64,000 bases of DNA. Origin: a virus (Duplodnaviria > Caudoviricetes). Of this stretch, positions 3,653-59,179 are shown in pieces. The stretch is taken from positions 16,228 through 80,227 of IMG/VR virus record IMGVR_UViG_3300021255_000122, one strand, 5' to 3'. A program made the translations under genes and the position numbers. Below the pieces are notes generated by a model. That model had not been told where the DNA came from. It was given only the letters and a program-made list of their open reading frames with translations, and searched no databases. How positions within the stretch are numbered: the first letter of the stretch is position 1; each line of letters begins with the position of its first letter.

Positions 3653-4042
3653 ATGGAAAATTCAATTATCGTACAAATAGAGAAAATCTTAGACAAGCAA
3701 ACATTCACTTCAAGTAAGACGGGAAACGTCTATGAAAAATTTTTCTTCGTAGGCAAGACGCAAGCGCAATATCCAAAGACAATCGCCTTTTCGGTGATGG
3801 GTGCGGAAAAGTTTGAGAAACTTGGTATTGTGGTAGGCAAAACGTACAATATTTCGTTTGATGTGGAAAGCCGCGAATGGAATGGAAAGTATTTTACCGA
3901 TATAACCGCATGGAAGGCCGTGTGCGTCGATGGTGGCAATGCGCCACAACAAGCATCATCCAATGTTCAAAATCCGCAACCGCAACCACAAGCCGCGCCG
4001 CAAACTACAACGAATGCCAATGATGATGGTCTGCCATTCTGA
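3653..4042 (+). CDS. DUF3127-family OB-fold ssDNA-binding-like protein
   Basis: FDVESREWNGKYFTDITAWK motif and acidic DDGLPF tail. Confidence 0.85.
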   Translation: MENSIIVQIEKILDKQTFTSSKTGNVYEKFFFVGKTQAQYPKTIAFSVMGAEKFEKLGIVVGKTYNISFDVESREWNGKYFTDITAWKAVCVDGGNAPQQASSNVQNPQPQPQAAPQTTTNANDDGLPF

Positions 4043-4066
4043 TGCGTGTTTCGTTCACGAGAGCAA

Positions 4067-7936: not shown

Positions 7937-7986
7937 TATAACATAAAATTTTGCTATATATGAAATTTTATTAGTACACTTGCAAA

Positions 7987-8062
7987 GTGGATAGGGCGGT
8001 TTGGCCACCGCTTGATAAGGGGTAATCCTATCGCCCCTTCCACTTTTTCAAATGATAGGATT
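7987..8062 (+). ncRNA. Homing-endonuclease-associated structured RNA leader, copy 1
   Basis: 57-nt three-way junction plus loop pairing to 8054-8062; covaries with the copy at 14700-14772. Confidence 0.8.
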
Positions 8063-8081
8063 GATTAAAGAATAGGAAATT

Positions 8082-8834
8082 ATGAAAGAAATTTGGAAAG
8101 ACGTTGTAGGCTACGAGGGTTTGTATCAAGTATCGAATCTTGGTAGGATAAAATCGTTACCAAAAGAAAAGAAAACCCCAACCACAACTTTTATGACGAA
8201 AGAAACAATCTTAAATCAACACAAAGATAAGGGTGGTTACTTTCGTGTAATGTTGACAAAGAAAGGGAAATCAATACTTAAATCAGTGCATGTCATTGTC
8301 GCTTCTGCTTTTATTGGTGAAAGGAATAATCTTACCGTAAACCATAAAGACGAAAATAAAGCCAACAATAACGCAAACAACCTTGAATATCTTACAAGAG
8401 CAGAAAACGTGAGGTACGGAACTGGTATTATTCGTAGTGCTAAAAACAGACAAAATAACCCTAACATAGGTATTGCTGTAAATCAATTCAACTTAGACGG
8501 TACTTTTGTCGCAAGATACAAATCTGCTTTTCTCGCAATGAAACTAAACGGTTGGAAAGGTTGTGGAGGTAATATCTTAGAATGTTGTAGAAAAAAGAAA
8601 CACACATTTATGGGTTTTGTGTGGCGTTTTGATGGAGATACAAACATTGAATTTGAACGAAAGACTAATGCCAAGGGTGTTTTGCAATTTACAAAGGATG
8701 GTGTACTCATCACAGAATATAAGTCATTGACAGATGCGGAAATGGCTACACATACTCAAAAAGCGCACATTTGCGATTGTTGTAAGGGAAATAGAAAATA
8801 CGCAAACGGTTTCTTGTGGAAATATAAGGATTAG
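8082..8834 (+). CDS. NUMOD4-HNH-NUMOD1 homing endonuclease
   Basis: EIWKDVVGYEGLYQVSNLGRIKS; VNHKDENKANNNANNLEY; two QF..DG....Y.S repeats. Confidence 0.9.
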   Translation: MKEIWKDVVGYEGLYQVSNLGRIKSLPKEKKTPTTTFMTKETILNQHKDKGGYFRVMLTKKGKSILKSVHVIVASAFIGERNNLTVNHKDENKANNNANNLEYLTRAENVRYGTGIIRSAKNRQNNPNIGIAVNQFNLDGTFVARYKSAFLAMKLNGWKGCGGNILECCRKKKHTFMGFVWRFDGDTNIEFERKTNAKGVLQFTKDGVLITEYKSLTDAEMATHTQKAHICDCCKGNRKYANGFLWKYKD

Positions 8835-8839
8835 TAATT

Positions 8840-10972
8840 ATGGATGCAAACGAAATTAGGCATTGGCACAGCGTTTTCAAACGTGATAATGAATTGTTTG
8901 AGATACGCATATTGGGAGATAGAACTTGGAGCGGATATTTTTATGACGTGGAAACTGCAATAAAGGCTCTTGAACCGTTTGATAATGCCAATATATATTA
9001 TTCAATCAATGAGGTTAAATCAGCTTGCGCAAGCAGAGACCAATTTAATTGTTTTAAACAAGTAAAAGGTACGGCTACAAGTAAACAAGATATAGAACAT
9101 CGTTGGTGGTTGCCTATTGATGTGGATTGTGAACGACCAAGCGGTGTTAGTTCAACCGAAGAAGAAAAAGCAAAGGCTCACAAAAAAGCGCAAGATGTTT
9201 TTGTATTCTTACGCGAAAATGGTTTTTGTACGCCAGTCGTTTGTGATAGTAGTTCGGGTTATCATATATTATACCCTATTGATATGGATAACAATCAAGA
9301 AAGCGAAGATTGCATAAAGGCTTTTCTTGAAATACTTGCAAACAACTTTACGGACGAGAGCGTAAAAATCGACACCGTATTGCATGATGCAAATAGAATA
9401 TTACGATTGTCAGGAACTTATGGACGCAAAGGCCGTTCGACAAAGGAAAGACCTCACCGTATGGCTAAGATACTTTCCGTACCAAGCGAAATAAAACGCA
9501 TGGGTATTGAACAAATCAAGGCTTTTAACGCAAAATACACAATTAAGGTTGAACAACCACAAAGACGGCAATTTCGTGGATTACAAAACGAGCAATTCAA
9601 TCTAAGGGATTTTATTGAAAAGTACGGTATTAAAGTCGCAAAGGAAATTCCTATTAGTGGTGGAGGTACAAAGTTTGTGCTCGAAGAATGCCCGTTCGAC
9701 CAGCAACATAAAGCCCCAGATTCCGCTTTGTTTGAAATGCCAAATGGTAGTATTGCGTTCAAATGCTTCCACAATTCTTGTTCGCAATACGATTGGCGTG
9801 CGTTTAGGTTGCATTTCGACCCACACGCTTACGATTATGAAAACGAACCAAGACAACAACACGTACCACAATCAACGTACCAACAAAAGGGTTACACGCA
9901 ACAAAAAAAGTACGAGATTAAAGAGGAAATCCCCGAACTTGGAGAAAAATGGCTTTCCATGTCAACTATAAAGAAAGTGGACTTGTCACAACTTGAACAC
10001 TTTTCTACGGGTTTTACAGAACTTGATAAGAATATAATTGGTCTTTACATGTCGGAAGTAACCATATTGTCGGGCAGTAACGCAAGTGGTAAATCATCAT
10101 GGTTAAACACGCTCTTACTAAATATAATCCAACAGGGAGGAAAGGCTGCTTTGTGGTCTGGTGAATTGCGCCCCGATATATTGAAGACGTGGATTCAAAT
10201 GGTAGCCGCAGGAAAATCAAATCTTAGGCTTTCAAACTATGGTGATGGCAAATATTATGTACCAAACGCAATTGCCGACAAAATAGACGAATGGCTCGAC
10301 GGAAAGTTTTTCTTGTACAATAACGAATACGGAAACTCATGGCAGCAAATCTTTCACGATATGGAATTGTTGTTAAAGGCTGGCGTAAAAGTATTTGCTT
10401 TGGATAACTTGTTTAGCCTTGATATTGATATTCTTGATGGGGATAAAAACAACAAGCAAAAGGAATTGATATTGCAAATCAAGGATTTTGCTAAAAAGAA
10501 CCTTGTACATATAATATTGGTTGCACACCCAAGGAAAGTTACTTCGTTCCTTAGAAAGAATGATATTAGCGGAACATCAGACTTACAAAATGCTGTTGAT
10601 AAGATATTTATAATTCATAGGGTAAATAACGACTTTTTCCGCTCTGGTGCTGAGTTCTTTGGCGAAAGCGAAATCAATCATTATCGTGGTTACGGAAACG
10701 TTATAGAAGTTTGCAAGGAAAGACTTTACGGCGTTGTTGACTTAATGGTAGGTATGCAATACGAGGTGGAAAGTCGTAGGTTCAAGAACACGATGGACGA
10801 AAACATTCGATATGGATGGGAAATAGAACCCATACAAAGCACGATGTCGTTTAATGGTGGCCAAGTGTACACGCAACCACAAGAAAACGCGCCACAAGCA
10901 AAAGAAACGGCAAATAACGCAAACGATATGATGCCATTTGCACCTTATGTTGGCGACGATACGCCTTTTTAG
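8840..10972 (+). CDS. Primase-helicase (AEP-like primase, Zn domain, SF4 helicase)
   Basis: PIDVDCE and SGYHI primase motifs; CPF..H..CFHNSC; GSNASGKS Walker A; LVAHPRK. Confidence 0.85.
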   Translation: MDANEIRHWHSVFKRDNELFEIRILGDRTWSGYFYDVETAIKALEPFDNANIYYSINEVKSACASRDQFNCFKQVKGTATSKQDIEHRWWLPIDVDCERPSGVSSTEEEKAKAHKKAQDVFVFLRENGFCTPVVCDSSSGYHILYPIDMDNNQESEDCIKAFLEILANNFTDESVKIDTVLHDANRILRLSGTYGRKGRSTKERPHRMAKILSVPSEIKRMGIEQIKAFNAKYTIKVEQPQRRQFRGLQNEQFNLRDFIEKYGIKVAKEIPISGGGTKFVLEECPFDQQHKAPDSALFEMPNGSIAFKCFHNSCSQYDWRAFRLHFDPHAYDYENEPRQQHVPQSTYQQKGYTQQKKYEIKEEIPELGEKWLSMSTIKKVDLSQLEHFSTGFTELDKNIIGLYMSEVTILSGSNASGKSSWLNTLLLNIIQQGGKAALWSGELRPDILKTWIQMVAAGKSNLRLSNYGDGKYYVPNAIADKIDEWLDGKFFLYNNEYGNSWQQIFHDMELLLKAGVKVFALDNLFSLDIDILDGDKNNKQKELILQIKDFAKKNLVHIILVAHPRKVTSFLRKNDISGTSDLQNAVDKIFIIHRVNNDFFRSGAEFFGESEINHYRGYGNVIEVCKERLYGVVDLMVGMQYEVESRRFKNTMDENIRYGWEIEPIQSTMSFNGGQVYTQPQENAPQAKETANNANDMMPFAPYVGDDTPF

Positions 10973-13287: not shown

Positions 13288-13862
13288 AATCTTAATTCCT
13301 TTCTAAACGTTTTAATTTGTCCCAAACAATATTTACCGTATTCAACATTTGAATTTTCGGAATATTTGTATATCGTGACGTTGCAAGTGTCGTCGCAATC
13401 CCTAATATTTACCGAAGATGTATCAAAAAGATAAATCCTAATACTTGAATACCCATCACATGTAAGGTTTATTTTACTACCATTGCTTATGTAAAGCGTA
13501 GGACAGGAAACTTTTGGCACTAAAACGTTAATATTACACCAAAGTAATTGTGTAACGTCCGTTGTAATTACCAAATCAGTTTGCGTGTCAATATACATTG
13601 CATAGGTAAATCCGTTTACACCATCACAATCGTTAAAAACGTGTCCATTGATATATTCTCCAAATTCTTTTTTGCAATACTCTTTCGACAACCCTTTGCC
13701 TCGATAACAAAAGTCCGCAAAATAAGGTGCTGCTTGTTGGTTTAGAACTAACCTTACCAACTTCTCTTTATCATCGTGGCAAGCCGCCCACTTACCATCC
13801 CATTCTTTACATAGATTAGCAAGTTTGGCGTTTTTTCTAAATTCTAACATTTCGTTTTTCAT
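13284..13862 (-). CDS. Hypothetical phage protein (Cys-rich, beta-helix-like C-terminus)
   Basis: Clean ORF within the tail operon. Confidence 0.7.
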   Translation of the reverse strand: MKNEMLEFRKNAKLANLCKEWDGKWAACHDDKEKLVRLVLNQQAAPYFADFCYRGKGLSKEYCKKEFGEYINGHVFNDCDGVNGFTYAMYIDTQTDLVITTDVTQLLWCNINVLVPKVSCPTLYISNGSKINLTCDGYSSIRIYLFDTSSVNIRDCDDTCNVTIYKYSENSNVEYGKYCLGQIKTFRKELRL

Positions 13863-13865
13863 ATA

Positions 13866-14678
13866 CTAATCAGTTATTTCTACCTTGTAATTCATTAAAG
13901 CATTATAAACTTTTTCGTTTATCTTTCCATCTTTGTAATATTGTGTTGCCATTTCTTGAATATGGGCTTCTTTCGTCTTTTTGTATGCTTGAAATGCTTT
14001 TTCTTGTGTATCAAACGTGCCAAGATTTATATATTCACCATACTTTCTAACAATAGCACTAAACGATTTGCGTTTATTTCTTTTTACTACACCTATCGGA
14101 AAATTACCCCTTGTTGCATCATGTTTTGTTATAAGCGTATTTATTTCAGATGGCACAAAACAACAAGTTTTAGGGGAATATACTTTATTGCCTTTTATAA
14201 GAATGTCCTTATCAAGATGATACCCTTCTACGTAATTCTCGTCAAACCATCTTTCGAAATTAGAAAAATACCGCCAACTATCACAAACAGTACAATTTTC
14301 GTAAGGTGTTCCTATGTTCTTTGACGAATAACATCTTTGAAACATGGCTTTCCATATTACATAAGATTTATGTCTTTCCCCTTTAACCGATGTGGAAAAA
14401 TCCGAATCATTTATACCAATGCCATATATTTTTTTTCGTGACCATTTTCTTGGAATACCGCCGTTATTACGTGAAGCATACGAACAACTTTTGCATCCAC
14501 AATACAATAAATGGTCGTGTGGGGTTTGTAAAAAAACACCATGTTTCTTGCATATAATAGGAACTTTTGTAGTGGTGTTAACGTAAATTTCTTCTGTAAT
14601 AAGGTTATAATCAAACCTGTTACCCCACACATTTTTAAATGCAGTTTTAATTTCTGCTAAAGTTTTCTTTCTTGGCAT
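13866..14678 (-). CDS. Homing endonuclease (Zn-binding N-terminus, HNH-like core, AP2 domain)
   Basis: ICKKHG..CGCKSC; WKAMFQRCY...LDKDILIKGNKVYSPKTCCFVP; NLGTFDTQEKAFQAY; alternative in-frame ATG at 14708. Confidence 0.85.
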   Translation of the reverse strand: MPRKKTLAEIKTAFKNVWGNRFDYNLITEEIYVNTTTKVPIICKKHGVFLQTPHDHLLYCGCKSCSYASRNNGGIPRKWSRKKIYGIGINDSDFSTSVKGERHKSYVIWKAMFQRCYSSKNIGTPYENCTVCDSWRYFSNFERWFDENYVEGYHLDKDILIKGNKVYSPKTCCFVPSEINTLITKHDATRGNFPIGVVKRNKRKSFSAIVRKYGEYINLGTFDTQEKAFQAYKKTKEAHIQEMATQYYKDGKINEKVYNALMNYKVEITD

Positions 14679-14699: not shown

Positions 14700-14772
14700 A
14701 TCTACCATTGGAATTATGGAAGGGGCGGTAGATTTGCCCCTTATCGGATGGTGGCCAAACCATCCTATCCAT
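14700..14772 (-). ncRNA. Homing-endonuclease-associated structured RNA leader, copy 2
   Basis: 45/57 identical to 7987-8043, with differences almost all compensatory. Confidence 0.8.
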
Positions 14773-14776
14773 ACTA

Positions 14777-14784
14777 CAAAGATA
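14777..14784 (-). promoter_or_regulatory. Bacteroidota -7 element (TATCTTTG) directly upstream of the RNA motif
   Basis: Perfect TAnnTTTG with TTTG upstream. Confidence 0.7.
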
Positions 14785-48390: not shown

Positions 48391-48463
48391 TTGGGGTAGG
48401 TGAACTCGAATCACCACTACGGGAGCCAAAATCCCGTGAACTAACCAGTTATTCTATACCCCA
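48391..48463 (-). tRNA. tRNA-Gln(TTG)
   Basis: Full cloverleaf: TGGGGTA/TACCCCA, CGGGA-TTTTGGC-TCCCG, GGTGA-TTCGAGT-TCACC; CCA not encoded. Confidence 0.9.
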
Positions 48464-51541: not shown

Positions 51542-51897
51542 AAGTTGAAAATCCTTTGAATGATGTTGCGGTCTTGCAACCTTTCGTTTTCCTCACGTAG
51601 TTTCAAATTTTCGTTAACCGAATCATTATAAAACTTTCTCACGCATTTTTCGCTTTTAATCAACCCAAATACCAATTTGGTTATTTCCGCTTTGGTTGCA
51701 ATTGACGGTTCGCCCATAGCATCGCAATACACGGTATCGGAATGCCAAAGGTCGCCATCCCTTACGTTTGAATCCATAAAGTAATCAACGGCAACGCTTA
51801 TTCGCGTGCATTCCTTACTACTACTTTCAACAACACCAACGGCACGATGTCCGTTGTATGTCCAAGCAATAATATCGTTTTCCTTAAATACTTTCAT
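51538..51897 (-). CDS. Hypothetical protein
   Basis: Clean ORF. Confidence 0.7.
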   Translation of the reverse strand: MKVFKENDIIAWTYNGHRAVGVVESSSKECTRISVAVDYFMDSNVRDGDLWHSDTVYCDAMGEPSIATKAEITKLVFGLIKSEKCVRKFYNDSVNENLKLREENERLQDRNIIQRIFNL

Positions 51898-59104: not shown

Positions 59105-59179
59105 TGAACGGGGAGGGAATCGAACCCCCGATTAACGCCTTTAGGTAAGCGTTGCTTCAGTCCACCGAAGTTCCCGTCC
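59105..59179 (-). tRNA. tRNA-like element with an atypical 10-nt anticodon loop (TTACCTAAAG); identity undetermined
   Basis: GGACGGG/CCCGTTC acceptor, CTTC/GAAG D-stem, AACGC/GCGTT anticodon stem, GGGGG-TTCGATT-CCCTC T-arm. Confidence 0.7.

Follow-up and report, generated by a model that had tools for sequence, protein, structure and literature searches.

The closest catalogued relative of the element described here is int-alpA (RF02996 in Rfam), reportedly one candidate RNA of a 224-motif survey, and the literature that we searched yielded no paper testing its function. Comparable in logic are the platforms of translational riboswitches and RNA thermometers, in which three mutually complementary strands engage in two exclusive pairings, one of them over the ribosome-binding region. 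Closest in biological setting are the homing endonuclease genes of T4-type phages, which are held down by RNA structures that sequester the ribosome-binding site (PMC3014915). The hairpins involved (I-TevI, mobE and segB) are simple and local, and their effect is set by the promoter from which the transcript originates (PMC3014915).

The phage leader that we describe below resembles the T4 hairpins in that RNA structure at the initiation region would limit the translation of selfish phage nucleases, but it shows no sequence or structural kinship with them. The leader has a conserved junction and two pseudoknot targets that compete with each other, and it is transcribed from the cassette's own predicted promoter. 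Instead of a local hairpin over a Shine-Dalgarno sequence or an AUG, with an internal late promoter, we find a junction and a pseudoknot, with the promoter located upstream of the whole element. The leader also differs from riboswitch and thermometer platforms, as its putative sequestering strand is a hairpin loop that would form pseudoknots, and not one partner in a helix swap.

Two leader copies in a rumen phage genome

The window analysed here is a stretch of 64,000 nt of the virus record IMGVR_UViG_3300021255_000122 (positions 16,228-80,227), which derives from a rumen Bacteroidota phage. An initial annotation of this window had reported two 57-nt stretches on opposite strands, each preceded by a promoter -7 box. 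Both stretches are present as described, at 7987-8043 (plus strand, copy A) and 14716-14772 (minus strand, copy B), and are identical at 45 of 57 positions. A 34-nt degenerate pattern matched only these two copies in the 64-kb window and nothing in 100 shuffles, and they are the sole copies in the complete 80,227-bp virus record.

In copy A, the promoter can be read directly at 7950-7982 (plus strand), with a -33 TTTG element at 7950-7953 and a -7 box, TACACTTG, at 7975-7982, which has one mismatch to TAnnTTTG. The three-way junction follows at 7984-8046, an assignment based on covariation, on covariance model scores (101 bits with model R1 and 91.9 bits with model R2) and on a match to int-alpA. 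Helix P1 is formed by 7984-7991 with 8039-8046, P2 extends over 7994-8013 (apical loop 8001-8006, with the palindrome UGGCCA at 8002-8007), and P3 pairs 8019-8023 with 8033-8037. The helices are joined by the strands UA (7992-7993), GAUAA (8014-8018) and U (8038). P3 is closed by the loop AAUCCUAUC (8024-8032), a strand able to pair with either of two downstream sites. The gene that follows (8082-8834, plus strand) encodes a 250-aa homing endonuclease, in which a Pfam scan recognises NUMOD4 and HNH_3 domains and, weakly, NUMOD1.

Copy B has the same organisation on the minus strand. Its -7 box, TATCTTTG (14777-14784), is exact, and its three-way junction spans 14715-14773, with scores of 96.6 bits (R1) and 86.9 bits (R2). 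P1 pairs 14773-14768 with 14720-14715, P2 covers 14765-14746, the junction strand GAUAA lies at 14745-14741, and P3 pairs 14740-14736 with 14726-14722 around a loop at 14735-14727. The gene of copy B (13866-14678, minus strand) encodes a 270-aa nuclease of PHROG 953/374 ('HNH endonuclease'). This nuclease has no Pfam match, and BLAST shows no relation to the copy A nuclease. The minimum free energy structure of copy B taken alone gives the junction. For copy A, the single-sequence prediction is a misleading long hairpin, in which GGGCGG pairs with CGCCCC, and was rejected in favour of the junction given by copy B and by the alignment.

The initial annotation stated that all 12 differences between the copies but one fit a single fold. 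The fold is confirmed and the reservation was slightly too cautious, as all 12 keep pairing. From copy A to copy B, a G-C pair of P1 becomes A-U; in P2, two G.U pairs become G-C, one G-C becomes A-U and one C-G becomes U-A; and in P3, a U.G pair becomes C-G. The three remaining changes fall in the P3 loop, and each is matched by a change in a downstream segment that we call site 1 (8054-8062 in copy A, 14706-14700 in copy B).

Promoter spacing is conserved well beyond this phage. An exact Bacteroidota -7 box (TAnnTTTG) is found upstream of 33 of the 41 distinct family members identified below, and in 26 of them it stands 5 nt before UGGAUAG; given this fixed spacing, the fold starts at the transcript 5' end or close to it. 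Assembled contigs from rumen metatranscriptomes, in which DNA carry-over is possible, include relatives of the leader and nuclease. Two such contigs lack the first 6-8 nt counted from the predicted 5' end and one extends 60 nt further upstream, contig ends being unable to define RNA ends.

Covariation supports the fold across the family

The leader is a genuine structured RNA with a wide distribution. Pattern scans of IMG/VR, the hits of which were confirmed with a covariance model derived from the 12 sequences obtained first, yielded about 45 relatives, nearly all of them in IMG/VR phage contigs and a few in MAG contigs. The covarying three-way junction with a pseudoknot, proposed initially from two copies, is borne out by these relatives, in which all three helices and the pseudoknot covary strongly. 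In an unfitted MAFFT alignment of 12 relatives, RNAalifold independently predicts the same three-way junction, and the fold including the pseudoknot pairs 94.6% of cells, with 13 double-change pairs. None of 500 shuffles reached the real value, and slid controls were 39-53% paired. Five of the nine pseudoknot pairs show compensatory changes among 11 distinct sequences. When 40 sequences are aligned, 94.3% of cells are paired (44-58% in slid controls), the covariation score is 0.497 versus 0.155 in shuffles (none of 500 reaching it), and outer P1, P2 and P3 all covary. The apparent invariance of the inner P1 pairs and of the P3 G-C pairs arises because the search pattern fixed them: in copies found by other routes, P1 reads GAGA/UCUC and GCGA/UCGC, and in one of these copies (locus L100) P3 reads GCGGU/ACCGC.

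Bacteroidota phages and Gammaproteobacteria alike keep the junction nucleotides UAG, GANAA and U, while the helices covary freely; the P3 apical loop of the family measures 7-11 nt. G.U pairs are common (27 of 40 sequences have one at pair 12-44) and the forward strand scores 92 bits versus 19 for the reverse. The abundance of G.U pairs, together with this strand asymmetry, points to conservation of the gene-strand RNA.

A small RNA with a three-way junction and a pseudoknot in a phage context might be suspected of being a self-cleaving ribozyme or an RNA-processing element, the more so as the order of its junctions loosely recalls a type I hammerhead (a GAAA-like strand after P2 and a single U after P3). 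Yet no Rfam ribozyme family is matched, even at E <= 10, and the nucleotides beside the UAG strand pair and covary; of all the explanations that we considered, this one is the least credible. A mapping of the junction onto the hammerhead was attempted and abandoned, as the CUGANGA core strand is absent, only UAG standing before P2, and as no Rfam hammerhead model matches at E <= 10.

Outside the phage contigs, a pattern scan of a genome collection returned 25 matches, most of which are due to chance and only three of which look real (L064, L057 and L070). Two of these, in a Pasteurellaceae MAG (L057, 6339-6429) and a Terriglobales MAG (L070, 3008-3101), keep the UGGAUAG and GACAA junctions outside Bacteroidota phages. 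Both have the loop, site 1 and a second site as elsewhere, the latter being Shine-Dalgarno-like. The Pasteurellaceae leader has a tRNA gene 1.5 kb away, and the ORF downstream of it (98 aa) belongs to no family.

One loop, two target sites

The P3 loop of copy A is fully complementary to the 9 nt of site 1 (8054-8062, plus strand), a pairing worth about -10.7 kcal/mol, and that of copy B forms 7 bp with its own site 1, GGUAGAU (14700-14706, minus strand). As the site 1 of each copy includes an AUG, the initial annotation described the motif as pairing over the start codon. This part of the description does not hold: the AUG that takes part in the pairing is a coincidence and not the true start, and many relatives have UUG in its place or lack it. 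A 7-codon upstream ORF does exist in copy A, as reported (8052-8075). A role for the site-1 AUG in opening an upstream ORF or an N-terminal extension was rejected, since the codon is UUG or absent in many members, and copy A and locus L035 have a stop behind it. The open frame that runs from this AUG in relatives of copy B results from a constant spacing of 30 nt. The conserved N-terminus of the copy B nuclease family starts at the second ATG, so that the real start of this gene is at 14678, not 14708.

A second loop-complementary site, missed by the initial annotation, lies near the true start codons. In copy A this site 2 is AUAGGA (8072-8077, plus strand), which complements the core of the loop (about -6.6 kcal/mol) and ends 4 nt before the start codon; in copy B it is GUAGAU (14687-14682, minus strand), which ends 3 nt before the start codon. 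The same geometry is fixed in the family. Site 1 lies about 7 nt past P1 (10-12 nt past the UCCA of P1) and forms 7-10 bp with the P3 loop. Site 2 is a shorter copy located 16-21 nt beyond site 1, forms 4-8 bp with the loop, ends 3-6 nt before the true start codon and thus occupies about -4 to -10.

The 41 distinct members have 22 different loop sequences, and both sites vary in step with the loop. Within the site-1 window, the mean contiguous run of complementarity is 7.3 nt with the cognate loop versus 4.0 nt with foreign loops, and in the 15 nt before the AUG, where site 2 lies, it is 6.2 versus 3.6 nt. A site-2 run of at least 5 bp is found in 93% of cognate pairs versus 17% of foreign pairs. 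Site 1 gives the stronger duplex in 31 of the 41 members (on average -10.2 kcal/mol, versus -8.2 at site 2), and three loci have a weak site 2 of only 4 bp (L006, L028 and L048). Loop sequences differ between copies carried by the same genome and match their own sites only.

Two rival explanations account differently for the loop and its sites. According to the first, the element is a 5'-terminal stabiliser, in which the junction and the site-1 pseudoknot shield the end of the mRNA from decay and the site-2 match is a by-product of local duplication. Compact junction-plus-pseudoknot folds at RNA ends can indeed block nucleases, as in the exonuclease-resistant RNAs of flaviviruses, and the predicted transcription start coincides with the beginning of the element or lies only a few nucleotides away. 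This scenario leaves unexplained why site 2 tracks 22 loop sequences, why it always ends 3-6 nt before the AUG and why it is the Shine-Dalgarno sequence in proteobacterial relatives, and we regard it as improbable.

According to the second, the loop and its two sites are repeats that function in DNA, as operators or recombination sites bound by the downstream protein. All downstream products bind DNA, and the account of I-TevI given in PMC3014915, which cites it from elsewhere, provides a precedent in which a homing endonuclease represses its own promoter via an operator. Against this, the same repeat (loop AACCAGAAC) stands before three unrelated protein types, pairing and not sequence is kept in three helices with many G.U pairs and a strong strand asymmetry, and one of the repeats is always inverted and enclosed in a hairpin loop. 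An element acting as DNA has, in our opinion, very little chance of being the correct explanation.

A proposed model based on two exclusive pseudoknots

We propose that the leader is a cis-acting translational throttle or switch operated by two mutually exclusive pseudoknots, a reading to which we assign a probability of roughly 0.6. Each cassette would consist of a promoter of the host type, the leader and an accessory gene, with the leader acting in cis. Pairing of the P3 loop with site 1 would preclude its pairing with site 2. With the loop parked on site 1, as a decoy, in a compact pseudoknot, the A-rich initiation region would be left open; with the loop on site 2, this region would be structured and loading of the 30S subunit hindered. 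The balance between the two pseudoknots would then set, or switch, the translation of costly genes such as those for homing endonucleases, integrases and antirepressors. In Proteobacteria, the same loop contact would hide the Shine-Dalgarno sequence.

Only this model, among those that we considered, explains both the covariation of three elements and the fixed position of site 2 beside the AUG. Repression of translation by site-2 pairing, and a shift of the balance by some trigger, are what we infer from this arrangement. As site 1 is usually both stronger and closer to the loop, the permissive state should dominate at equilibrium, and a mild throttle or a triggered switch would thus fit better than a strong block. 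In Bacteroidia, ribosomes ignore Shine-Dalgarno sequences, and both the structure of the mRNA and the adenines located upstream tune initiation (PMC7797042, PMC6847099), so that a helix at -4 to -10 should matter in these hosts. The design with three partners, namely loop, parking site and a copy of the latter at the ribosome site, survives in phages whose hosts ignore Shine-Dalgarno sequences. As it also persists through at least 22 variants that drift together, we argue that its functional core is the RNA-RNA contact beside the start codon, and not mimicry of 16S rRNA.

A special case of this model is that the trigger is sensed by the leader itself, the junction being an aptamer for a metabolite, an ion or a protein, the binding of which would stabilise the site-1 pseudoknot (ON) or free the loop onto site 2 (OFF). 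The junction nucleotides (UAG, GANAA and the single U) are conserved while the helices covary, and the layout of the leader resembles that of translational riboswitches, which combine an aptamer core, an anti-RBS strand, the RBS site and a competitor. The core is small, however, the downstream genes have no common metabolic theme, and a conserved junction could merely dictate how the helices stack. A sensing junction is thus an unlikely refinement, albeit one with more in its favour than the stabiliser considered above.

An uncatalogued sister branch of int-alpA

At gathering thresholds, Rfam recognises only two tRNAs in the 64-kb window. The corresponding tRNA genes are located at 48391-48463 and 59105-59179, both on the minus strand, with 59 and 34.4 bits for the Rfam tRNA model. 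Below threshold, copy A matches int-alpA end to end over 7984-8060, with 29.2 bits (E-value of 2e-4 in 251 nt) for a gathering cut-off of 35.8 bits. Copy B has no match to RF02996, even at E-value thresholds, and a scan of 11 related loci with Rfam yields a single RF02996 match, at 22.8 bits (L034). Neither copy therefore reaches the score required for membership.

The architecture is nevertheless that of int-alpA. The three helices and the UAG and GANAA strands, which precede P2 and P3, respectively, are aligned in register by cmscan, and an E. coli int-alpA member aligns likewise to model R1. Both RNAs have a three-way junction and a P3 of 4-5 bp whose loop, of about 9 nt, forms a pseudoknot with a 3' segment about 7-10 nt past P1 and also complements a second segment in the ribosome-binding region. 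Among 151 Gammaproteobacteria, we found 19 int-alpA matches, 18 of them over the cut-off and one at 33.6 bits. These 19 RNAs and the E. coli member, which is a genuine int-alpA (64.9 bits in E. coli D5) located between an integrase gene and a hypothetical gene, all have the same junctions, a P3 loop of about 9 nt and a site 1; in all of them, site 2 is the Shine-Dalgarno sequence of the next gene.

Moreover, some loci are recognised by both Rfam and our models. L092 scores 33.6 bits with Rfam, just under the cut-off, and 26.3 bits with R2; it reads GGGAUAG...GACAAGG...CCUUCCC, with the same junction sequences as the Bacteroidota branch. For L091, the scores are 40.7 bits (Rfam) and 18.4 bits (R2), and two further loci over the Rfam cut-off have R2 scores of 14.5 bits (L077) and 12.8 bits (L083). 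In all four loci, the R2 match falls at the Rfam coordinates. In int-alpA loci, R1 and R2 place the Rfam coordinates first or among a few weak matches.

The two groups differ in several respects. The leaders described here occur in Bacteroidota phages, mostly before homing endonuclease genes, whereas int-alpA occurs in proteobacterial islands and satellites in an integrase/alpA setting, with unnamed genes beside integrases; Pfam identifies no families among the genes that follow genuine int-alpA RNAs. In the phages, site 2 has an arbitrary sequence and is not a Shine-Dalgarno sequence, and P2 is longer, with a palindromic apex. Given the shared architecture and the intermediates that score with both models, sequence comparison leads us to place the phage leader as an uncatalogued sister branch of int-alpA, not as a member by the Rfam threshold. 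The novelty implied by the initial annotation is thus reduced: the element is uncatalogued at the Rfam threshold, but it is not wholly new, being a sub-threshold relative of int-alpA with the same architecture. What is new is a nuclease-linked variant in Bacteroidota phages that lacks a Shine-Dalgarno sequence, and its palindromic P2 loops. If correct, the model of two exclusive pseudoknots would supply a concrete mechanism for the whole int-alpA class, so far an orphan motif.

Leaders are shuffled among accessory genes

The genes located downstream of the leaders comprise 23 HNH_3/NUMOD4 nucleases, 14 nucleases of PHROG 953/559 (including the gene of copy B), one GIY-YIG/NUMOD3 nuclease, two tyrosine integrases and a few genes of no assigned type. 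The initial suggestion that the leader is portable between unrelated nuclease genes is thereby well supported, with three nuclease families, integrases and other accessory genes standing behind it, and two loci illustrate its reassortment. The leader at L008 (9235-9319) is identical to that of copy A but precedes a different nuclease body. Conversely, the nuclease at L100 is 97% identical, and the leader (1391-1476) has a different P2 and P3. Phages would thus package homing endonucleases, integrases and antirepressors as plug-in cassettes, each with its promoter and a putative translational governor. Among 80 loci with relatives of the copy A nuclease, R2 detects the leader in only six (E <= 0.01), so that it is optional for such genes; several further loci of this set have Shine-Dalgarno-type leaders.

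The position of the leaders relative to these genes argues against the possibility that the junction RNA is released as a small RNA that acts in trans on other messages. Rfam does classify int-alpA as 'Gene; sRNA', not as a cis-regulator, and the P2 loops, which are palindromic and identical in both copies of this phage, could allow leaders to contact each other. The leader, however, always has a same-strand ORF within 3-6 nt, the stretch that separates P1 from the AUG (30-45 nt) is too short for a terminator, both targets are in cis, and the loops of different copies in one genome, as noted above, match only their own sites. We therefore consider action in trans to be highly improbable, and retain the throttle or switch acting in cis.

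In two viral contigs (L041, 4152-4236, and L044, 2727-2811), the leader precedes a tyrosine integrase gene, which recalls the integrase neighbourhood of int-alpA. A single viral contig of 17.7 kb (L011) carries three leaders (3963-4046, 9781-9864 and 13638-13720), which differ in their P2 apices and loops and stand before genes for two HNH_3/NUMOD4 nucleases and for a nuclease of the copy B type. At two other loci with related nucleases and promoters of the Bacteroidota type (L102 and L114), a different leader, not detected by R2, lies about 150 nt before the nuclease ATG at 1501. The L102 leader contains a hairpin whose loop is complementary, over 11 nt, to part of another, longer hairpin. 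These two leaders may represent a second leader class with similar logic.

The cultured phage closest to ours is the Bacteroides uniformis phage C3_41T2LP (OR296439.1), with 43.7% identity in a primase/helicase-like protein. A blastn search of the leader region against cultured phages gave no match, and only R2 brought to light the three leaders of C3_41T2LP (loci L184-L186), at 35181-35099 (minus strand), 51605-51692 (plus strand) and 4357-4276 (minus strand). They precede genes for an I-HmuI-like nuclease, an HTH protein and an AntA/B antirepressor. The last of these genes comes directly behind the tape measure gene, in the slot that the copy B nuclease gene takes in our phage. With its three copies, C3_41T2LP offers a cultured system for the study of these leaders.

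A palindrome at the apex of P2

In nearly all members, the apex of P2 contains a perfect palindrome of 4-10 nt, the sequence of which varies, with GGCC, AGCU, CAUG, AAUU, UGCA or CGCG as the central four bases. The longest palindrome averages 6.2 nt, versus 3.4 nt in 2000 shuffles (maximum 4.6), and the palindrome lies 1 nt off the axis of the lower stem. The two leaders of our phage have the same apex (8001-8007 in copy A, 14758-14752 in copy B). As self-complementarity is kept despite sequence change, at positions that cannot pair within one hairpin, loop-loop homodimerisation is suggested, and the P2 apex may be a kissing-loop homodimerisation site. The dimerisation initiation site of retroviruses is likewise a palindromic kissing loop, dimerisation of the phage leader being only a prediction. 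A neutral origin of the palindrome, by template switching within a hairpin, is also possible.

A broader and more speculative reading, which we think has a modest chance of being right, is that the int-alpA superfamily as a whole is a portable bistable governor that controls the translation of selfish and accessory genes through two exclusive pseudoknots, distributed over phages and islands of many phyla and independent of Shine-Dalgarno recognition, whose Bacteroidota branch would in addition homodimerise via the palindromic P2 loops or be coupled to a ligand at the conserved junction. The output would then depend on the concentration of leader RNA or on a cellular cue. As judged by eye, about half of the genuine int-alpA RNAs also carry a palindrome in P2.
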